DNA from: an uncultured Methanosarcinales archaeon
GTDB lineage: Archaea > Nanobdellota > Nanobdellia > Woesearchaeales > GW2011-AR9
NCBI GenBank assembly: GCA_964344235.1
Contig: CAYFMJ010000002.1
Coordinates: forward strand, 13,320 to 77,319
DNA: 64,000 nt
Direction of reading: 5' to 3'
Shown in pieces: positions 3,752 through 41,399 of the stretch. The translations under genes were made by a program, and so were the position numbers. Numbering within the stretch: the stretch's first letter is position 1; every line of letters begins with the position of its first letter. The notes beneath the pieces were generated by a model. The model was not told the origin of the DNA. It ran no database searches and saw only the letters and a program-made list of their open reading frames with translations.

Positions 3752-5107
3752 TCACACCGGCACATTCATCGCTGCCCGTTGCACAACTTCACTTAAAGCA
3801 GGGTGAATATGCACAACATTTCGTAATAACCGTAACCCGTCTTTTCCTGCTTTCATCGCAATCAACACTTCATGCAATAACACAGAAGCATGCGGCCCTA
3901 TAACATGGCAGCCTAAAATCTTTCTACTACGAGGATCTACTAACAACTTCACAAATCCATCTTCTTCCGCTAACGCTTCTCCCATACCCGTATTCTTATA
4001 CAACGCCTTTCCTACAACATATCCCTTTCCCTTCAACTCTTGCTCCGTTTTCCCTACGCCTGCAATCTGTGGAGTCGTAAACACTGCATGTGGCATCGGA
4101 AAATAGTCAACCGGCTGCTTCTTATGAAATAAATTATACTGCACAAAATCTCTCTCGAGATTCGCACTGTGTCGAAACATATACACTCCTGCAATATCTC
4201 CTAAAGCCCAAATATCTTTCACATTCGTTTCCATGAACTGGTTAACCCGAATAAAACCTCGTTTATCCATCTTCACGCCTGCCTTCGCCACATTAAGATA
4301 ACCAGTATTCGGCCGAACTCCTGTTGCTACTAATAACTTCTCCGCTCGCAATTTCTTCCTACGTCCATTCTGCTTCACAGTAACCTCAACACCCTTCCCT
4401 CGCTTCGCAACGTTAACAACATCAGCTTTCGTTAACACATCATACCTCTTCCTCCACAATGCGGTAAATAACTCCGCAACCTCACGATCTTCTCGCGGTA
4501 ATAATAATGCATTTCGTTGTACTATTGTTATCTTACACCCTAATGCTGCATAGAAATGCCCTAACTCTGATCCAATATAGCCTCCACCTATCACAATCAT
4601 ACTTTTCGGAAGTTTTGTCTGCCGCAACGCTTCCGTACTGGTCATATAATCAACATTATCTAATCCATCAATCGGCGGAATAAACGGCCTTGCACCAGCT
4701 GCAATGACAATTCTCTTTCCAGAAATAATCTTACCGTTAACCTCAACGTCATACTTCCCCACAAACTTTGCTTCTCCCTGAAACAATGTAGGATTTCTTC
4801 TTGACAACAATGCCTTTTCAATCCCTTTAGAATCTCCATCTACAAGTTTGTTAGCCCTATCTGTTACTTTCTTAAATTTGACACCAGTAACCTTTGAATC
4901 AACACCAAAAATGGATGACTTTCTAATTCCCTCAGCTACATCAGCGGAGTGGATAACGATCTTTGATGGAATGCACCCTCTGTTCAGACACGTTCCACCT
5001 AATGCTCCTTTCTCTATTAATGCAACTCTCCAGCCATTACGAGCAGCATCATTCGCCAACCCTAACCCCGCTCCGGAGCCAATCACAATTAAATCAAATG
5101 ATTTCAT
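3752..5107 (-). CDS. class I pyridine nucleotide-disulfide oxidoreductase (dihydrolipoyl dehydrogenase-like)
   Basis: FAD-binding GSGAGLG, redox-active GGTCLNRGCIPSK, second GGGYIGSELG, and C-terminal HIHPALSEV His-Glu motif. Start taken at MKSFDLIVIGSG (5107). Confidence 0.8.
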   Translation of the reverse strand: MKSFDLIVIGSGAGLGLANDAARNGWRVALIEKGALGGTCLNRGCIPSKIVIHSADVAEGIRKSSIFGVDSKVTGVKFKKVTDRANKLVDGDSKGIEKALLSRRNPTLFQGEAKFVGKYDVEVNGKIISGKRIVIAAGARPFIPPIDGLDNVDYMTSTEALRQTKLPKSMIVIGGGYIGSELGHFYAALGCKITIVQRNALLLPREDREVAELFTALWRKRYDVLTKADVVNVAKRGKGVEVTVKQNGRRKKLRAEKLLVATGVRPNTGYLNVAKAGVKMDKRGFIRVNQFMETNVKDIWALGDIAGVYMFRHSANLERDFVQYNLFHKKQPVDYFPMPHAVFTTPQIAGVGKTEQELKGKGYVVGKALYKNTGMGEALAEEDGFVKLLVDPRSRKILGCHVIGPHASVLLHEVLIAMKAGKDGLRLLRNVVHIHPALSEVVQRAAMNVPV

Positions 5108-32963: not shown

Positions 32964-33015
32964 AGTCCTCTTTTTCCTACATTAAAGAAGTCCTTTTTTG
33001 ATTTATATACTTTCC

Positions 33016-33024
33016 TATAATTCC
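33016..33024. repeat. left copy of the 9-bp target-site duplication TATAATTCC
   Basis: Identical 9-mer directly abuts the outside of both terminal inverted repeats (33016-33024 and 38868-38876). Confidence 0.75.
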
Positions 33025-33037
33025 GGCTTTGCACAAA
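33025..33037. repeat. left terminal inverted repeat GGCTTTGCACAAA, with two further subterminal TGCACAAA copies at 33048-33055 and 33068-33075
   Basis: Exact reverse complement of 38855-38867. The TGCACAAA core occurs three times within 50 nt. Confidence 0.75.
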
Positions 33038-33169
33038 CGCTTAGTTCTGCACAAAGAGATTGCATTTTGCACAAACAATATCTCCCCAAATTAGGGGTTT
33101 TTTGGGTGTTTAGTTAACTATGTGTTCCACACAAGAAGTTTTTAAATAATATCAGCCGTAAGATACGTC

Positions 33170-33583
33170 ATGGTTAAAATTAGGGGGTCAGAGGCTATTA
33201 GGAGAATCCGCCAAATACAAAAGAACATTGAAGAGCAGAATAGAAAAGACATAGATGATGAATTAGAACTGCTTGGTCTGAACAGAAATGATCCTGACCT
33301 AAAAAAAATCGTAGAGAAAATCATTGAGAAAACAGAATCAGAAAGGGCCCTTTTGAAAATACTTAACAAACGTTTTGAGACGAATAAAGCAGTCAATATC
33401 AAAAGAACATTTGAGATCATAGATCGGATTAGATCTAAGAAAAATTTCTACGTCAATTTAGCATATATCAGGAAACAAGAAAAAATAAACGGGAGGCTAT
33501 TACGCCTGAACCGAGATACAATCCGCTTGACTATTTTGGTTTTGTTGTTGATGGCAGTTCAGATATTCTTAATGGTTCGTTGA
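33170..33583 (+). CDS. hypothetical coiled-coil protein (uncertain)
   Basis: 137-aa K/E/R-rich ORF at the left end of the element. It competes with an antisense ORF and overlaps the 3' end of the nuclease gene. Confidence 0.3.
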   Translation: MVKIRGSEAIRRIRQIQKNIEEQNRKDIDDELELLGLNRNDPDLKKIVEKIIEKTESERALLKILNKRFETNKAVNIKRTFEIIDRIRSKKNFYVNLAYIRKQEKINGRLLRLNRDTIRLTILVLLLMAVQIFLMVR

Positions 33584-34232
33584 CTCTTACCCATTTACAA
33601 AACCCGCACTCTTCAGAGCTCTCTGGCAAACTGCCTTCAAGAACCGCTATCGCCTCTTTGAAGATTTTCTTAGCGTTGTTAACATTAACTTTCATTTTTA
33701 TTAGTTCTGCGTGAAAGTCAACATCGCCATTCTCGTGAACTTTATTTGGATGGTAGAAGAGCAGGTAAGCGTAATCTTCGGTTTTGTAATCATTTAACTG
33801 CAGTAGGTGGTTGTAAATGTCTAACTGATTCTGGTAATGGTCTGCTGTATCCTCTTTTAATGGGTATCCTCTAGTTTTGTAATCTAAAACGATGAGTTTG
33901 TTGCCTTTCTTTAGAATGTTGTCTACGGCTCCACGAAAGAGGTTTCCTTCTTTGTCCGTCCACTGAATACCTTTGAAATTGTTTCTCCAAATTGTAAGTA
34001 ACTCTTCATCATCAAAGAGTTTTACTTCACCATTGAGTTTCTCTAATTCTGGAGGGAGTGTTTCCAACTTCATAAACTTATCAAAGTGGTTTTTTAAGAT
34101 TCTATCTATTCCAGAAGGTAAACTTGGAAAGATTCCGTTAGGCCTACGCAACTTTTTATTATGGTGTAGCCAGAAACAACGTGGACATTCTTTTAGAAGG
34201 CTTAGTGCTGAAGGGGAGAGTTTGTATGCCAT
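33531..34232 (-). CDS. Cas4/RecB-like PD-(D/E)XK nuclease
   Basis: N-terminal LSPSALSLLKECPRCFWL, GAVDNI (D), VLDYKT (D/E-x-K), QNQLDIYNHLL (QxxxY), and C-terminal Cys pair ECGFCKW. Confidence 0.7.
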   Translation of the reverse strand: MAYKLSPSALSLLKECPRCFWLHHNKKLRRPNGIFPSLPSGIDRILKNHFDKFMKLETLPPELEKLNGEVKLFDDEELLTIWRNNFKGIQWTDKEGNLFRGAVDNILKKGNKLIVLDYKTRGYPLKEDTADHYQNQLDIYNHLLQLNDYKTEDYAYLLFYHPNKVHENGDVDFHAELIKMKVNVNNAKKIFKEAIAVLEGSLPESSEECGFCKWVRVNEPLRISELPSTTKPK

Positions 34233-34233
34233 T

Positions 34234-35178
34234 TTAGTTTAGGGATTTTGAATAAGGTAATGATTTAATATAATTCCTCATAAAAATCCAATCTGGCCTG
34301 CCATCTTTATCGACAGGCAACATTATTTTACTCTTTGACATCCTATCAAATCTCCATTTACGGCCGTAATTAAACCGATATTTTTCTTTACCAATTAAAG
34401 GGATTAAGAACATCGAGATATATACATCTAGATGCCCATCTTTGATTCTTAAAATGTTTACATCATGAGAACAAGTAAATTCTTCTGGTTGATAGAATGC
34501 AGCACCAGCATGGCCATTGTTAACTACTGTTAAACAATTCCCCTTGAAGACTTTTTCTACAATCGATTTGTCAAGATAATCTGTAACGCCATTGTTATAA
34601 ACGGATGCTGAGATGAATTTCAATTCCCCCTCCTTAGTTGGCCTTTTATTATAAAATCCTCTTTCAATTGCGAATACCTCACCATACAAGAAATACTTCC
34701 ACTTTCTACTTGATAAATTTGTTTTTTCGTTTAATAACCTTGCATTAAGATTCCTTCGGACAAATTTTTTCTTTTTATAGACCCACGAGGGCATATTAAT
34801 CTCAACCAATGTTCTCCCAAGCCTACTAGGTGTAACCTTTCTACCATAGCTATATCTAAAAACTTCCCTTCTTATTAAAAGGACAAAATACATCATCTCC
34901 TCCCTTGAAAATTTCCTTTTTGGTGAAAGAACAATGCTATCACTATTTATACAACAACCCCTCTCTTGTAAGAATGCATAACAAACCGTTCCAGTCCTGG
35001 GTACATTAATGACATTTCTATAGGTTGGTTCAATATCTACATAACCCACAACTCCATTATCGGTTCCTTTTGATGAGATAAGTGGAGTTTTCCCTCTATC
35101 AACAGTATCTCTTACTAAGAGGTTGTCTTTTCCATACTCCATATCAAACAATTCACGTAGTTCAATCAACTTCCTCAC
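34234..35178 (-). CDS. HsdS-like specificity subunit with two target-recognition domains (BcgI-B-like)
   Basis: Internal duplication: LRELFDMEYGK...PLISSKGTDNGVVGYV...YSYGRK...IEINMP versus GEVFAIERGF...FISASVYNNGVTDYL...FNYGRK...KIMLPV. 314 aa, with no long HsdS coiled-coil spacers. Confidence 0.7.
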   Translation of the reverse strand: MRKLIELRELFDMEYGKDNLLVRDTVDRGKTPLISSKGTDNGVVGYVDIEPTYRNVINVPRTGTVCYAFLQERGCCINSDSIVLSPKRKFSREEMMYFVLLIRREVFRYSYGRKVTPSRLGRTLVEINMPSWVYKKKKFVRRNLNARLLNEKTNLSSRKWKYFLYGEVFAIERGFYNKRPTKEGELKFISASVYNNGVTDYLDKSIVEKVFKGNCLTVVNNGHAGAAFYQPEEFTCSHDVNILRIKDGHLDVYISMFLIPLIGKEKYRFNYGRKWRFDRMSKSKIMLPVDKDGRPDWIFMRNYIKSLPYSKSLN

Positions 35179-37045
35179 CCAATTCTTTGAATAACAAATA
35201 TTTTTTCATCTCTCTCTCAAAATCACTTATCTTAATTGATGAGAAATCTGATTCTAAATACGCTTCTGGAACTAATTCCAATAACTCGTCATCTGGGTCT
35301 AATTCTGTGGAAATTTTAAATTCTGGGACTGCCTTAACTTGATGATTATTGTTGGACATAAAGGCTTTTAATTCATCTTTAATCTCAAGAAGCCTATTAC
35401 TTTCTTGTTTGTCAAAAATTCTTTTCCCCTTTCTTTTTATGAAACCATCTGTATTAGCCTTTGCAAAATAAACCTTCTGGTTTATAAAATCATGAGGTAC
35501 ACCTTTTTTTATAAACATCCCAACAGTATGGACACCAACAGGGTAAAATAACTCCTCTGGGAGAGTCAATACACTTACAAGGGAGTTTTTTCTTAATAAT
35601 TCTCTCCTCCATTGCTTACCACCAGACTCAATAAGGACGGATATTGGAACAATTGCAAAAAGATGCCCACCGTCTTGCATTTGCTCAAGCGCATAGTCTA
35701 TGAAATGACTCTCTTTTTCATCAGATTTTTTTAATGCAAACGGGGGATTCATAAGAACTTTAGTTATGATGGGACTTTCATTTTTATTTCCCTCCCTTCT
35801 TTTAAATTCTCCTGTTGGAAAACCTTTCTTTTGAGTGTATACTATATTCTTCTGAAAGCAATTCCCTTCACTGATATTGTTTTTTCCATCCCCTCGAAAA
35901 ATCATATTAACTAGCGATAGTGAAACCACTTCATCATCTTGTTCTATTCCAAAAACATTATAATTTTTGAATTTGTCTAGCTGTTTATCATTGCTAGAGT
36001 TTTTCACATAATCAAAAGCAGACACTAAAAAACCACCTGTTCCACAGGTTGGGTCAAAAACATAATCATTGTGTTTTATATCAAGGACATCCACCGCAAA
36101 TTTGGTTATATGTCTTGGGGTAAGGACTATGCCAATCTCTTTTGCACCATTACCATATTTTAAAAATTTTTCATAAAACTTTCCGAGGACATCATTACCA
36201 GATGCCATAGCATTCTTTATATCCAAGGTCTGGAGTTCTTTTAGTGTGTTTATTATTGCTCTTCTATACTTAATATGGTTCTCTTTGCTTGGAGGCACTT
36301 CTAGTTTTATAAAATCAAAAAAACTTTCTTTATTTACTTCCTCTAACTTTGTTTTAATGAGATTATTGATATTATCAACAAGAAGTTTTGTTTTAGATGT
36401 CCTTAAACTTATCTCTTCATTTAGAGACAAAGATAAAACAAGCCCAGCTATAAACCTCGCTCTTTTATTTTTGTTTATCCCTGCGTTGTGTAATATCTCA
36501 TTTATTCTCTCAGCTGATGCCAAGTATTTTTCTTCAGGAAAATCAGGAAATTCTTTCCAATTAGGTGTTTTATTTGATAGTAAGTATTCTGCTTGCTCCC
36601 TTGATAATAATGTATCTTTTGGTTTTCCATTGAATAACACTGTTTCCCATTTGCCATCGTGAAGGAATTGGTTGATTATTGTATAACCATCAGTGTCATT
36701 TCCAGCTAACCCTGTTATTATCAGGCATTTAATTTTCTTACTTTTATTTATCTTCTTGGCATATTGGTTTTTTGCTTCATCCAATGCTTCATTAATATCC
36801 TTTTTGTCCCTTTTGCTCTCTATTACCCAATATTCAGAATCATTCAAACACACAACGGCTTCAGGCATATCTCTACCTAGAACTTGTTTAATATTTTCAT
36901 TGTACAAACATTCGTTCTGTTTGTAAACCTCTCCCTCTGGGACCCTGGCAGGATTTTTTACTACCCAACCTAATTCTTCTAACTCCTCTTTAATATAAGC
37001 ATATGCATCAACCTCTGAATTTTTAGGTTTTTTTGAATGAACCAT
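35162..37045 (-). CDS. fused restriction endonuclease / N6-adenine DNA methyltransferase (Type IIB BcgI-A-like)
   Basis: N-terminal PD-ExK-like MPEAVVCLNDSEYWVIESKRD. MTase motif I VFDPTCGTGGFLVSA and motif IV LMNPPFA. 17-nt overlap with the S gene. No HsdR-type helicase nearby. Confidence 0.8.
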   Translation of the reverse strand: MVHSKKPKNSEVDAYAYIKEELEELGWVVKNPARVPEGEVYKQNECLYNENIKQVLGRDMPEAVVCLNDSEYWVIESKRDKKDINEALDEAKNQYAKKINKSKKIKCLIITGLAGNDTDGYTIINQFLHDGKWETVLFNGKPKDTLLSREQAEYLLSNKTPNWKEFPDFPEEKYLASAERINEILHNAGINKNKRARFIAGLVLSLSLNEEISLRTSKTKLLVDNINNLIKTKLEEVNKESFFDFIKLEVPPSKENHIKYRRAIINTLKELQTLDIKNAMASGNDVLGKFYEKFLKYGNGAKEIGIVLTPRHITKFAVDVLDIKHNDYVFDPTCGTGGFLVSAFDYVKNSSNDKQLDKFKNYNVFGIEQDDEVVSLSLVNMIFRGDGKNNISEGNCFQKNIVYTQKKGFPTGEFKRREGNKNESPIITKVLMNPPFALKKSDEKESHFIDYALEQMQDGGHLFAIVPISVLIESGGKQWRRELLRKNSLVSVLTLPEELFYPVGVHTVGMFIKKGVPHDFINQKVYFAKANTDGFIKRKGKRIFDKQESNRLLEIKDELKAFMSNNNHQVKAVPEFKISTELDPDDELLELVPEAYLESDFSSIKISDFEREMKKYLLFKELGEEVD

Positions 37046-37133
37046 CTATCTTTTCCTCTTTTTTGTTTTCTTTTTTGGAGCAGAGAATATTTTGGCATAG
37101 TTAAGGCTCCACTTAACTGATTTGCCTCTAGGC

Positions 37134-37337
37134 TTACTTCTTGTTTTTGTAGCTTTCTTCTTCACCATGTTTAATCAAAATCTCTTCTTTGTATAATTTA
37201 TCAAGATACTTTTTAACTGTTACATAACTTATTCCAGTATACTTAGATATTTCATGAGCAGTCATAAAACCGCCGTGTTTATGAATCGCCCTGATTATTT
37301 CTCTCTCTTTATCTTTAAGTATCGGTTTGCTCGTCAT
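37134..37337 (-). CDS. small HTH DNA-binding protein
   Basis: 67 aa. MTAHEISKYTGISYVTVKKYLDKLYKEEIL is a helix-turn-helix. Confidence 0.55.
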   Translation of the reverse strand: MTSKPILKDKEREIIRAIHKHGGFMTAHEISKYTGISYVTVKKYLDKLYKEEILIKHGEEESYKNKK

Positions 37338-37566
37338 CTACCACCTCAGCGAAAAGACGAGGAACCATCTCGCCATGCTCACTTTTGTCTAACTCAACTC
37401 TAAATCGCATTATTTCATCGCCAGTTAGTCTTGCTCGTTCGGCGATCCTTTTTGGGATTTTAACCGAGAACTGCCCCGTGTTTTTGTGAAGCGTAACTTT
37501 TGCAGTCAACTCAGAACCTTGTTCTCCTTCGATTATTTCTCTAACTTCTTCGATTACCTTTCTCAT
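37315..37566 (-). CDS. SpoVT/AbrB-like small DNA-binding protein
   Basis: 83 aa. FSVKIPKRIAERARLTGDEIMRFRVE resembles the swapped-hairpin AbrB motif. 23-nt overlap with the HTH gene. Confidence 0.45.
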   Translation of the reverse strand: MRKVIEEVREIIEGEQGSELTAKVTLHKNTGQFSVKIPKRIAERARLTGDEIMRFRVELDKSEHGEMVPRLFAEVVDDEQTDT

Positions 37567-37784
37567 TGGAACTAAATATTAATCTTTATTTCATAATAAA
37601 TAGTCTATTGATTTATATAATTATCGTTATTTTCATCATAATTAGACTAATTATTGGTAATTTTTAGAAAGTTTTAAATAAAAGTGACAATAAATAGACT
37701 AAATATTGTAAAATGAAACTTGCGAGGTTGATATTATGGATGTTGTTACTGCTACTGCACGCACGGTTAGCTGGAGGATGATGT

Positions 37785-38846
37785 GTGTTACAAAAGAGAA
37801 AAACCGAGATGTGGAAAAGAGGTCGTTTAGGAGAACGACAAATGGAACTACGGGAATTCAACAAGAAAGTCAAACAGCTCACCTACCCTCAAAATTGGGA
37901 AGCATACAATCGAGCCAAAACGCAGGAGAAAATCCTCGCTGAACGATTACTCTCAGAATTGCTAGAAGCGACAGCTAACATCAAGCCAGCAAGAAAAGGC
38001 GACCAGTACGCTTCTGTGAAAGATAAAATATTCTGTATGTTCGTTTACAACTTTTCTGGACTTAGCTCAAGACGTTGTATGTCTGATGTTAAGATCGCCC
38101 ACCAGAGGGGTTTAATCGCAAGGACACCACACTTTAACTCAATCTTGAACTATTTTGCCGATCCCAACACAACTCCCATTATCAAGAAGTTAATCACTCT
38201 CACGGCGTTGCCATTACGAAACGTGGAGAAAGACTTCGCTGTTGACTCTTCGGGTTTCTCAACATCTCTCTTCGACAGATGGGTAGATTACAGGACGCAG
38301 AAAGTAACAAGAAGAAGACATTGGAAGAAATGCCACATCACAGTCGGAGTTAAGAGTAATGTGATCACTGCTGTAAAAATAACATCTGGCAGTTCCCCTG
38401 ACTGTTCAGAATTCATAGAACTGGTAAGGGAAACGAGGGGGTTCTTTGACGTTGAAGAAGTTTCGGCGGACAAAGCATATTCAAGTAAATCAAATCTCGA
38501 AGCGGTCTCCCAACTTGGAGCGATTCCGTATGTGCCTTTCAAGAAAAACACAACAGGAAAAGCAAGAGGTTCTTACACATGGAGTCGAATGTATGATTAC
38601 TTCCTTAACAACAGAGAACGATTCGATCAATCATATCACAAACGGTCAAACGTTGAAACAGCTTTCCACATGATCAAGCGGAAGTTTGGAAATAATCTCA
38701 GAACAAAGAAAGATATTTCTCATGTCAATGAAATTTTGATGAAGTGCTTGTGCCACAATCTTTCGGTTTTGGTTCAGGAGTCGTTTGAACTTGGGCTAGA
38801 AATTGATTTTTCTCATTGTGCAGAAATCTATGCTGCACAGACGTAG
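37785..38846 (+). CDS. DDE transposase, IS4/IS5 superfamily
   Basis: AVDSSGF (D), SADKAY (D), YHKRSNVETAFHMIKRK (Y-x2-R-x3-E-x6-K). N-terminal YPQNWEAYNRAKTQEK. The real start may be Met at 37809 or 37842. Confidence 0.8.
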   Translation: MLQKRKTEMWKRGRLGERQMELREFNKKVKQLTYPQNWEAYNRAKTQEKILAERLLSELLEATANIKPARKGDQYASVKDKIFCMFVYNFSGLSSRRCMSDVKIAHQRGLIARTPHFNSILNYFADPNTTPIIKKLITLTALPLRNVEKDFAVDSSGFSTSLFDRWVDYRTQKVTRRRHWKKCHITVGVKSNVITAVKITSGSSPDCSEFIELVRETRGFFDVEEVSADKAYSSKSNLEAVSQLGAIPYVPFKKNTTGKARGSYTWSRMYDYFLNNRERFDQSYHKRSNVETAFHMIKRKFGNNLRTKKDISHVNEILMKCLCHNLSVLVQESFELGLEIDFSHCAEIYAAQT

Positions 38847-38854
38847 GGTTATCA

Positions 38855-38867
38855 TTTGTGCAAAGCC
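38855..38867. repeat. right terminal inverted repeat TTTGTGCAAAGCC
   Basis: Exact reverse complement of 33025-33037. Confidence 0.75.
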
Positions 38868-38876
38868 TATAATTCC
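38868..38876. repeat. right copy of the 9-bp target-site duplication TATAATTCC
   Basis: Identical to 33016-33024. Confidence 0.75.
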
Positions 38877-38898: not shown

Positions 38899-38907
38899 TT
38901 TATATAA
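38899..38907 (+). promoter_or_regulatory. TATA box TTTATATAA, 22 nt upstream of the serS ATG
   Basis: Motif and spacing as at other genes in the window. Confidence 0.45.
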
Positions 38908-40286: not shown

Positions 40287-41399
40287 ATGTTTAAGAGCCT
40301 CCTCGCAACATTACTCGCTGGGGGGATAGCAGCAACAACATTTCTGAGTGATGGAGCACCACTACAACTGGCAGCAGCGTATCATCAACCGTATACTGCA
40401 AGTATTCTCAGTCCACTTTCTGTTGAATCGGTCCCACCTCCTGCCGCACTTACAACCTCCTCTATAACCACCACTCCACCTCCAACCCTGCCTCGGAAAG
40501 CTCTCTCATACTGCACAACCACTCGGAGAATTCATCACTATCCTTCTGAAAGTGTCATTGACAGTACGGGATGTCCCCAATGGTGGAACCTTTTAGCGGA
40601 AGAATCTGAAATTCGTGAGCTTGACCGTGGTTGTGGTAGAATGGAAGACCTACGGGAAGATCTTTATCATCGTCTCGGCAGGTCGTGTGACTCTCCTGTC
40701 CTACGAGAACTAAGAACAAAAGCTCCTTCACCTGACTTTGTTATTTACTTTTTACAAAACATGTATGATGATAACCACCGTGATGGTGCAAAACCAAGTC
40801 CATTTGCTCCACCTGCTGCAGTTATAGAGATTCACAACGCTCTTGATGATCAACCAACATTCCGCCGGCGAGATATCCTGAATATACTCTGTGATGATTA
40901 CGCTGCCACTTCAAAACCTCCAGAAGGCAAAGAAGATGTTTGTCTTTCATTACAACAAGCATATCCTGATGATTTTGAGGTAATAGTAGAAGATCCCTCA
41001 GAAAGTCTTTTCTGCTCTATGCTTGAACCCGTCTTCAATTTTCTTGATTGGCGGCCCCCGTTTTTACATCCAATGCCCTCCGTAGACCTCTCGGAAGAAT
41101 TTCCAGGCATCTTTCCTCCTGGTGAAGCGGGTGTTAGTTTAAGGACCTATAAAATAATTACTACTCCCCTAAATGTGACTTACCACAAAGATGACATTGA
41201 AATGGTTGCTGAGGATTTAGTTCATGTTATTCGCTCAACTGTTCCTGCTGGTAAAGATGTTCTTGCTTATGGTCTAGAATTGAAATCTCAGTTTGGTGAA
41301 CTTTTCACTCTTCCACCAGGCACAGTAGAACTTGTTACCAATAAGCTAGTTGGCTATGACCCTTTGTCCAGGACATTTGCTATTGATAATATTGATTAA
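40287..41399 (+). CDS. hypothetical secreted protein
   Basis: Signal-peptide-like MFKSLLATLLAGGIAATTFL and a Pro/Thr-rich segment. No family recognised. Confidence 0.5.
   Translation: MFKSLLATLLAGGIAATTFLSDGAPLQLAAAYHQPYTASILSPLSVESVPPPAALTTSSITTTPPPTLPRKALSYCTTTRRIHHYPSESVIDSTGCPQWWNLLAEESEIRELDRGCGRMEDLREDLYHRLGRSCDSPVLRELRTKAPSPDFVIYFLQNMYDDNHRDGAKPSPFAPPAAVIEIHNALDDQPTFRRRDILNILCDDYAATSKPPEGKEDVCLSLQQAYPDDFEVIVEDPSESLFCSMLEPVFNFLDWRPPFLHPMPSVDLSEEFPGIFPPGEAGVSLRTYKIITTPLNVTYHKDDIEMVAEDLVHVIRSTVPAGKDVLAYGLELKSQFGELFTLPPGTVELVTNKLVGYDPLSRTFAIDNID

Follow-up and report, generated by a model that had tools for sequence, protein, structure and literature searches.

A probable unit transposon with an IS903-related transposase and a Type IIB-like restriction-modification cargo beside serS in an uncultured archaeon

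The element and its genes

The DNA analyzed here is a 64-kb stretch of contig CAYFMJ010000002.1 (assembly GCA_964344235.1) from an uncultured archaeon, hereafter called the window. In the spacer between serS and a divergent gene for a protein of 480 amino acids (aa), the window contains a segment of 5,843 bp (33025-38867) that is bounded by terminal inverted repeats (TIRs) and bracketed by a 9-bp target-site duplication (TSD). Seven open reading frames (ORFs) lie within it, including a single transposase gene at the right end and a predicted restriction-modification (R-M) pair. We consider it very probable that this segment is a unit transposon, an insertion sequence (IS) with passenger genes, which belongs to a clade related to IS903 and was inserted as one 5,843-bp piece. 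The features of the locus are as follows, with positions in the window.

33002-33009, - strand: TATA box of the flanking 480-aa gene, TATATAAA on that strand, 6 nt from the target duplication
33016-33024: TSD, left copy, TATAATTCC, 9 bp
33025-33037, + strand: left TIR (site L1), GGCTTTGCACAAA, perfect over 13 nt
33045-33057, + strand: subterminal repeat L2, TTCTGCACAAAGA, a direct copy of the terminal core
33065-33077, + strand: subterminal repeat L3, TTTTGCACAAACA, read from the sequence and the end alignment
33084-33103, + strand: CCCC-AAATTA-GGGG hairpin followed by TTTTTT, directly inside the left-end repeats and pointing inward
33170-33583, + strand: 137-aa ORF without family match, cargo of uncertain status, running inward from the left end and overlapping the 3' end of the nuclease gene
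33531-34232, - strand: 233-aa PD-(D/E)XK nuclease, Cas4-like, cargo (PF12705, E=1.2e-12; PADLOC Cas4, E=6e-10)
34234-35178, - strand: 314-aa specificity subunit, BcgI-B-like, cargo (PF01420, Methylase_S, E=5e-19; PADLOC Specificity_II PDLC03591, E=2.9e-26)
35162-37045, - strand: 627-aa fused restriction enzyme and N6-adenine methyltransferase, Type IIB/IIG, BcgI-A-like, cargo (PF02384, E=2.6e-33; PADLOC REase_MTase_IIG PDLC03608, E=5e-49)
37134-37337, - strand: 67-aa winged helix-turn-helix (wHTH) protein, backbone module (HTH_24, E=6e-5)
37315-37566, - strand: 83-aa AbrB/SpoVT-like protein, backbone module, first gene of the leftward array
37567-37808: divergent control region between the AbrB-like gene and the transposase gene, AT-rich (GC 0.27)
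37785-38846, + strand: DDE transposase of the IS5 family, IS903-like (PF01609, DDE_Tnp_1, E=6e-21; NF033579, 126.6 bits)
38812-38824, - strand: subterminal repeat R3, TCTGCACAATGAG on that strand, inside the transposase coding end
38831-38841, + strand: subterminal repeat R2, TGCTGCACAGA, inverted relative to R1 and R3
38855-38867, - strand: right TIR (site R1), TTTGTGCAAAGCC, the exact reverse complement of GGCTTTGCACAAA
38868-38876: TSD, right copy, TATAATTCC, an exact 9 bp

An earlier sequence-only reading of this DNA had proposed these ends, and both the exact match of the 13-nt TIRs and the identity of the 9-mers outside them were confirmed to the base. With up to two mismatches allowed, the 13-mer was present in the window only at the two element ends, and the 9-mer TATAATTCC had one further, unrelated copy at 34269. 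The right end begins 8 nt past the transposase stop codon (38844-38846), as had been stated. The claim that no left end lies close to the transposase also stood, and the best 13-mer match in the region upstream of the gene (37101-37830) carried 5 mismatches in 13 positions. Outside the left-end repeats the best internal match had 3 mismatches (35457, in the methylase gene), which is the chance level by our own estimate. The core TGCACAAA starts at 33030, 33048 and 33068, and of the 9 copies that the window has on its two strands, 4 are located in the element ends. The visibly AT-rich body noted earlier was borne out by windowed composition. The GC of 33025-37566 was 0.349, whereas 4.5-kb windows outside the element had a mean of 0.398 (standard deviation 0.012, minimum 0.362), which places the cargo about 4 standard deviations under the host value; the transposase gene, with a GC of 0.417, was host-like. 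The hairpin inside the left end resembles a terminator and may block transcription coming in from the flank.

Genes were assigned from Pfam, NCBIfam, PADLOC and PDB profile matches and from motifs read in the translations. The PDLC03608 match of the 627-aa protein covered residues 173-620, a second REase_MTase_IIG match had E=2e-43, and PDB matches were to Type I M subunits. This protein contains the methylase motifs DPTCGTGGF and NPPF and an N-terminal D...ESK motif of a nuclease, the latter recognized by eye only. Two traits of Type IIB enzymes were found in the pair: an A subunit in which an endonuclease is fused to a gamma-class N6-adenine methyltransferase, and a separate specificity subunit with two target-recognition domains, namely the 314-aa protein, whose PDLC03591 match spans 13-325 of 341 profile positions. 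The two genes have the layout of BcgI and are predicted to encode a Type IIB R-M system. The 233-aa nuclease has CxxC pairs close to both termini, but it scored 27.6 bits on the Cas4 model TIGR00372, under the cut-off of 65, and its neighbors are R-M genes rather than a CRISPR-cas neighborhood. By its sequence this protein is a Cas4-like PD-(D/E)XK nuclease only and not Cas4 proper. The R-M pair and the Cas4-like nuclease had been recognized in the earlier reading, and the Pfam and PADLOC matches upheld both. The 137-aa ORF is called as a gene in public assemblies.

The 83-aa protein had no Pfam match. A family profile built from 9 homologues gave weak PDB matches (E 0.001-0.05), of which the top six were small archaeal proteins (2glw, 7xi6 (C56), 5itm, 5itj, 2l66 and 3o27), three of them deposited as AbrB-family regulators. 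The control region that the gene shares with the transposase contains TAGACTA at 37643 and 37695 and, inverted, at 37601, as well as a 29-nt imperfect inverted repeat (37585-37613 / 37689-37717); the equivalent region of a related element, at locus L003, has an inverted TAGGACTA pair. The TAGACTA repeats look like operators and are candidate sites for the AbrB-like and wHTH proteins. The transposase ORF is 353 aa long from the GTG at 37785, and the start is likely the ATG at 37809 (345 aa), as called in public assemblies. No second transposase, second IS or integrase was present among the genes of the element. A composite transposon was rejected, as there is one transposase gene and neither a second IS copy nor an internal end. 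Scans of the window for tRNA genes and Rfam families found nothing.

A family of unit transposons and its kinship to IS903

Loci of relatives (numbered L003 and so on) were drawn from species-representative genomes, metagenomes, viral contigs and exact-protein look-ups. A script then accepted end pairs only if inverted ends of the GGCTTTG type, matching in at least 12 of 20 bases, enclosed a transposase homologue and had identical 9-mers on their outer sides. When 3,046 end pairs were tested, 64 pairs in 62 loci passed, against a chance expectation of 0.012. The elements measured 1.8-10.9 kb (median 4.35 kb), and only one of the 64, at L023 (1.8 kb), was under 2 kb; simple forms of about 1.5 kb were found on three short contigs (L099, L101 and L102). 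Among the archaeal members shown, about 24-84 nt (commonly about 27 nt) separate the transposase from the right end, and the remaining genes fill the interval up to the left end. A proximal left end was likewise absent from the close relatives L003, L109 and L112. Because an exact TSD surrounds long units in 62 loci, long-range pairing of ends is the normal architecture of the clade and not a coincidence. The element of the window has the same organization, with one transposase, one pair of inverted repeats around the passengers and a TSD around the whole. The earlier proposal that all 5,843 bp form one cut-and-paste unit is supported by these 64 related pairs, which enclose cargo within exact 9-bp duplications.

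The family is widespread in archaea, bacteria and viral contigs. About 30 contigs of a viral collection (the IMG/VR contigs L115-L144 and L111) encode family transposases, and 14 of these carry complete elements with exact TSDs; such contigs are a possible route between cells. The contig of L111 consists of co-directional genes, nearly all without a Pfam match, and appears virus- or plasmid-like. At L074 (2776-12095), two family elements stand in tandem, and all three junctions (left, middle and right) have the 9-mer GTTGGACCG, which suggests either repeated insertion at one site or a duplication. In some bacterial members, over 1 kb of cargo lies right of the transposase.

The architecture of the ends was compared by aligning 90 nt of each end for 20 elements. 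Left ends have the terminal site and direct copies of a repeat of about 12 nt at about 24 and about 44, and right ends combine the terminal site with two further copies, one inverted at about 28-35 and one direct at about 46, the latter in the transposase coding end. In a lineage with the terminus GGCTTTGTTTAATAAGT (L027, L039, L051 and L058), the internal repeats read CTGTTTAAAAAGT rather than CTGCACAATAA, so that the internal repeat co-varies with the terminus (TGCAC vs TGTTT). The three repeats per end are putative transposase-binding sites, a reading supported by this co-variation, which is the pattern expected of such sites. The earlier suggestion that the TGCACAAA cores are multiple binding sites gained support in the same way, as relatives keep the layout.

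When the ORFs of 36 elements were clustered, and small ORFs just upstream of the transposase were followed by iterative profile searches, the transposase alone was common to all and the cargo differed. Homologues of the 83-aa AbrB-like protein stood next to the transposase in 9 other elements (L003, L017, L018, L026, L030, L058, L096, L109 and L112), and homologues of the 67-aa winged-helix protein occupied the same position in 5 of them (L003, L030, L096, L109 and L112). The closest relatives by transposase identity were L003 and the P0002 contig (81%), L109 (69%) and L112 (60%). These four keep the small gene pair divergent from the transposase and have different cargo without R-M genes. Since the pair is kept beside the transposase while the cargo changes, the comparison indicates that the AbrB-like and wHTH genes are transposon backbone and not cargo, as they had been taken to be in the earlier reading. 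Their products are probably regulators of the divergent control region.

Cargo proteins of at least 140 aa (92 in total) were scanned with Pfam. Among methylases the scan returned 7 C5, 4 N6_Mtase, 4 N6_N4_Mtase and 1 D12, and among restriction enzymes Eco47II (2), an MvaI/BcgI-family protein (MvaI_BcnI) and HindVP. Other cargo included Vsr (2), HSDR_N (2), ResIII, AIPR, a Thoeris TIR protein and an IrrE-type peptidase. One or more DNA methyltransferases were assigned, by cluster membership and motif, to 13/20 archaeal elements of the first set; the remainder carry, for example, an AbiV-type HEPN protein, NosD/beta-helix and S-layer-like surface proteins or a papain-type protease. The fused methylase of the window has homologues in L016, L030 and L058, whose transposases are only 46-48% identical to that of the window. 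Left-end-like sequences were found inside two elements, in L111 at 4662-4677 and 4259-4274 (15/16 vs its own left end) and in L096 at element position 4243 (14/16). These stacked ends are a possible trace of cargo capture in which new left ends were added outside old ones. No internal left-end relic was found in the window element.

The signature Y284-x2-R287-x3-E291-x6-K298 is present in the window transposase, and D154, D229 and E291 together with Y284, R287 and K298 were invariant across 28 aligned homologues, in agreement with the DDE assignment made earlier. The best NCBIfam model was NF033579, which was matched over 2-287 of 289 profile positions at 126.6 bits (cut-off 140); the transposase of genuine IS903, from plasmid p1658/97, scored 353 bits. 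The IS903 terminus, GGCTTTGTTGAATAAATC, was matched in more than 5000 plasmids. Among 72,556 plasmids searched with the window transposase there was no close relative (best match 29.5% identical), and a metagenome scan with it gave 19 loci, none above 56% identity. Transposase homologues as a whole number in the thousands. The earlier comparison with the IS903 group was upheld. Because the 9-bp duplication, the GGCTTTG terminus and the best profile are shared, the element is by sequence a distant relative of the IS903 group, but the score under the cut-off and the low identity to IS903 itself (25%) do not make it a strict member or equivalog.

IS903 is about 1.06 kb long and has a single ORF. 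The window element shares with it a DDE_Tnp_1 transposase of the same signature, and differs in being 5.8 kb long with seven ORFs rather than a compact transposase-only IS, in bearing three repeat copies at each end where IS903 has a single 18-bp inverted repeat (IR), and in its additional AbrB-like and wHTH module.

Insertion site and target choice

Two boxes of the form TTTATATA lie one on each side of the insertion, at 33002-33009 and 38899-38906. The latter, in the serS promoter, is untouched and stands 30 nt ahead of the ATG. Conceptual excision of the element and one TSD copy left serS and the divergent 480-aa gene separated by a spacer of 113 nt, with TTTATATA on both sides; a restored divergent promoter region of about 110 nt had been predicted. 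The in-silico empty junction reads CTTTCCTATAATTCCCTTTCC, or in longer form ...GATTTATATACTTTCCTATAATTCCCTTTCCTCATG....

Empty counterparts were found in two relatives, L147 (GCA_964362485.1) and L149, where a homologue of the 480-aa protein (33% identity) is encoded divergently beside serS and the flanking genes are adjacent without an element. SerS identity to the window was 68% in L147 and 66% in L149, and the spacers measured 138 nt and 269 nt, respectively. The downstream genes of L147 are those of the window (a Cdc6-like gene, YjeF_N, DUF212 and a prenyltransferase), and TATATAAAC/TC is conserved ahead of the 480-aa homologue in both relatives. The empty spacer of L149 (1760-2028) contains GC-rich self-complementary sequence, which may represent a gene for a small RNA. 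The window has, between serS and the Cdc6-like gene, a 370-aa ORF (40287-41399) without a Pfam match, in the most GC-rich stretch nearby (0.47). At this position there is nothing in L003 and a 149-aa gene in L147, and the ORF may be a lineage-specific insertion.

The locus L003 (1811-2001), from a different archaeon, also has a transposase upstream of serS, 81% identical to that of the window. The host proteins of L003 are 50% (SerS) and 74% (Cdc6) identical to those of the window, and its AbrB-like and HTH proteins are 32% identical. The flank of this element is GTTTTTGTG followed by aatgt-TTTATAAA in place of TATAATTCC, and it lies 178 nt from serS vs 61 nt in the window. The empty relatives L147 and L149 are nearer to the window in SerS than L003 is. 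Because the flank, the distance to serS and the AbrB-like and HTH proteins differ despite the 81% identity of the transposases, we read the two as separate promoter-directed insertions into the same spacer; shared ancestry with later exchange is unlikely. On the P0002 contig a gene starts 70 nt past the transposase, and this may be the same serS case.

Target choice was analyzed in 31 archaeal-type empty sites, which were reconstructed and read outward from the duplication (62 half-sites). The consensus of the half-sites was N-AAAA-N-TTTATAAA. A TATA-like hexamer, T[TA]TA[TA]A, started at outward position 7 in 18/62 half-sites and at position 9 in 19/62, the latter mostly a second register of the same TTTATATA-type boxes, whereas no other offset from 1 to 25 had such hexamers in more than 2 half-sites. 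At least one side carried a box at position 7 in 18 of the 31 sites, compared with 0.57% of all positions in the same loci (p=8e-33). The sites involved include L008, L014, L016, L017, L023, L027, L030, L034, L035, L039, L045, L058, L069, L109, L112, L116 and others, and near-match boxes such as TTTTTATA or TTAAATA were present at several further sites. The box may face either element end. This fixed-distance association is statistically secure: in archaea, insertions of the family fall 6 bp upstream of a TATA box, and the neighboring promoter stays intact. The window insertion has the family spacing to the TATA box of the 480-aa gene, a feature that the earlier reading had missed.

An outward ATG followed 29-36 nt past the box in eight cases, which is the spacing of leaderless archaeal genes, and at 45-65 nt in four more, including the window; inspection of short ORFs and short flanks gave an ATG at 29-65 nt in at least 12 of the 18 TATA-bearing flanks. 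Outward ORFs of at least 70 aa past the box did not separate TATA-bearing from other flanks (8/18 vs 14/44). The stretch from the duplication to the box is purine-rich and coincides in position with the B recognition element (BRE). A tRNA scan at nine other loci found no tRNA gene adjoining any insertion site. The outer, TATA part of the target may be read either directly by the transposase or through DNA that is bound by TBP/TFB or bent.

The published target motif of IS903 is WTTYA-N9-TRAAW (PMC2577343, Table 1), and the A-rich bases just outside the duplication in the window family recall it. The profile of the family, with A at outward positions 2-5, is compatible with the RAAW of that motif; at the window site the motif agrees with the left flank TTTCC in 4 of 5 positions and disagrees with the right flank CTTTC. 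The IS903 motif covers only the inner, A-rich part of the family pattern, which differs in reaching to the TATA box at a fixed 6-bp spacing. The flanks of bacterial members (L075, L078, L079, L065 and L081) are not TATA-like, and several are palindromic or repetitive, as at L078 (cccctcc-CCACAAGGG-ggagggg). This suggests another type of target in bacteria, for example hairpin or REP-like sequences.

Alternative readings and significance

The arrangement favored here would operate as follows. The backbone consists of the IS903-type transposase at the right end and the adjoining divergent pair of AbrB-like and winged-helix genes, and the cargo, namely the BcgI-like Type IIB R-M pair, the Cas4-like nuclease and the 137-aa ORF, occupies the space between this pair and the left end. 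The transposase would bind the repeats of the two asymmetric ends, each with three copies of the repeat of about 12 nt (TGCACAA), and bring the ends together. The whole 5.8 kb would then be cut out and joined to the target with a 9-bp stagger, by a cut-and-paste chemistry proposed by analogy with IS903, and repair of the stagger would generate the TATAATTCC duplication. In archaea the family chooses targets with an AAAA-N-TTTATAAA flank, and the insertion therefore falls just beyond the BRE, at 6 bp from the TATA box on its upstream side, with the neighboring promoter intact. In the window the promoter concerned is that of the 480-aa gene, in the divergent spacer that it has in common with serS. 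Possible effects of the R-M cargo are protection of the host and stabilization of the element, as a benefit or through addiction.

Several observations weigh against this interpretation. Exact-protein look-ups of SerS and of the 480-aa neighbor retrieved seven public contigs from four runs of PRJEB17505, which were 99.995-100% identical to the window, with one mismatch, in the 21-kb contig L084. No empty site or excision junction was seen in this population, as every public contig that reaches the site is occupied; one copy of the element is visible, and there is neither polymorphism nor evidence of current movement. The empty sites come from relatives at just 66-68% SerS identity and not from sister strains. 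The left flank of the window reads GGAAAG-TATATAAA outward, which is not the full consensus, and the right flank has no TATA-like half-site. Furthermore, the transposase lies below the curated cut-off of the IS903-type model, and its identity to IS903 is 25% over 175 residues of the catalytic core (E=4e-10). Finally, stacked internal left ends, as a possible trace of cargo capture, were seen in L111 and L096 only.

The single copy and the near-identical, uniformly occupied contigs of the four runs would agree with an element that arrived as one transposon and is now a fixed, inactive resident kept for a useful or addictive R-M system. The related element upstream of serS in L003 could likewise mean long residence. 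Against this, the TIRs and the TSD are perfect, the reading frame and catalytic residues of the transposase are intact, and L147 and L149 are empty. Moreover, the flank of L003, its distance to serS and the 32% identity of its AbrB-like and HTH proteins point to a separate insertion. We hold present inactivity to be possible, though on balance rather unlikely.

The contrast in GC between cargo (0.349) and transposase gene (0.417) could also reflect two events, in which an R-M island entered by recombination or through an integrase beside an older IS and an outer left end was captured later. The stacked left ends of L111 (15/16) and L096 (14/16) suggest that a new left end can be placed outside one already present. 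In the window, however, the 9-bp duplication brackets the complete unit, and therefore the last event moved everything together; in addition, the element has no integrase, second transposase or internal end relic. Such a scenario accounts for the origin of cargo in the family and not for the arrival of this copy at its site, for which we regard it as quite improbable. An ordinary IS of about 1.3 kb beside serS, with the distal GGCTTTGCACAAA and 9-mer 4.7 kb away being fortuitous or a relic of another copy, is effectively refuted: although forms of about 1.5 kb (L099, L101 and L102) and 1.8 kb (L023) exist, no sequence upstream of the transposase matches the left end with fewer than 5 mismatches in 13, the 13-nt inverted and adjacent 9-nt direct matches amount to 22 specified bases, the same long-range layout with an exact TSD recurs in 62 loci, and L003, L109 and L112 also lack a proximal left end.

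Units in which one transposase accompanies R-M genes are already known. In 2010, Furuta, Abe and Kobayashi (PMC2853133) described isolated R-M units inside inverted repeats with a short target duplication, among them a unit of N. gonorrhoeae that combines a Type IIG gene with an S homologue and a transposase-like gene. The likeness lies in R-M genes within terminal IRs and a TSD, and in a BcgI-like pair of IIG and S genes beside a transposase-type gene; these units differ in their 8-bp duplication, IRs of 26-65 bp, degenerate COG3677 (IS1/IS1595-type) transposase and occurrence as isolated cases (PMC2853133). The window element has an intact IS903-like transposase and an arrangement that defines a large family. 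Transporter IS (tIS), such as members of the IS1595 family, are an established category (Siguier et al. 2009, as cited in PMC2853133). In these and in the window element alike, one transposase with its own IRs moves unrelated passengers as a unit, at the frontier between IS and transposon. The clade of the window differs in having another transposase family, in that cargo-bearing forms are the rule and not the exception, and in archaeal cargo dominated by R-M and defense genes. 'Aloposons', with giant genes and integration at tRNA sites, proved unrelated to the window family.

For target choice, a functional analogy is offered by Ty3, which integrates at Pol III start sites through TFIIIB/TBP. 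Both insert at a fixed distance from core promoter elements and spare the neighboring gene. The two are not homologous, and reading of the sequence by the transposase itself accounts for the data of the window family as well as TBP/TFB does. In the literature searched, which did not cover ISfinder, where a named member may exist, no account was found of an IS903-related clade with cargo-bearing forms as the rule, nor of the AbrB/wHTH module, triple-repeat ends or fixed-distance archaeal TATA insertion in such a clade. These features of the family look new. The window element itself, which had been thought unusual as a defense-carrying transposon with a single transposase and TIRs, is not a rarity, because it is one member of a wide family. 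More tentatively, and as a proposal that we consider possible but less likely than not, the family may represent an undescribed IS903-related clade with multi-site ends, AbrB/wHTH control and recognition of core promoters in archaea, perhaps as TBP/TFB-bound or TBP-bendable DNA, which serves as a main shuttle of R-M and defense genes among DPANN and other archaea, including via viruses.

In conclusion, the conserved ends of the family (GGCTTTG... and the 9-bp duplication) provide a direct means to delimit mobile defense cargo in metagenomes, and the family is a candidate large-cargo transposon tool for archaea. The spread of defense genes among archaea with tiny genomes (DPANN), in which few plasmids and few characterized mobile elements are available, is poorly known. 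The window locus and its relatives represent a simple, self-contained vehicle in which one IS903-type transposase moves kilobases of variable cargo, mostly R-M genes in archaea. The 6-bp spacing to the TATA box would permit such elements to colonize gene-dense genomes without breaking genes or promoters. A dependence of this spacing on TBP/TFB would make it an archaeal equivalent of the promoter-targeted integration known from eukaryotes.

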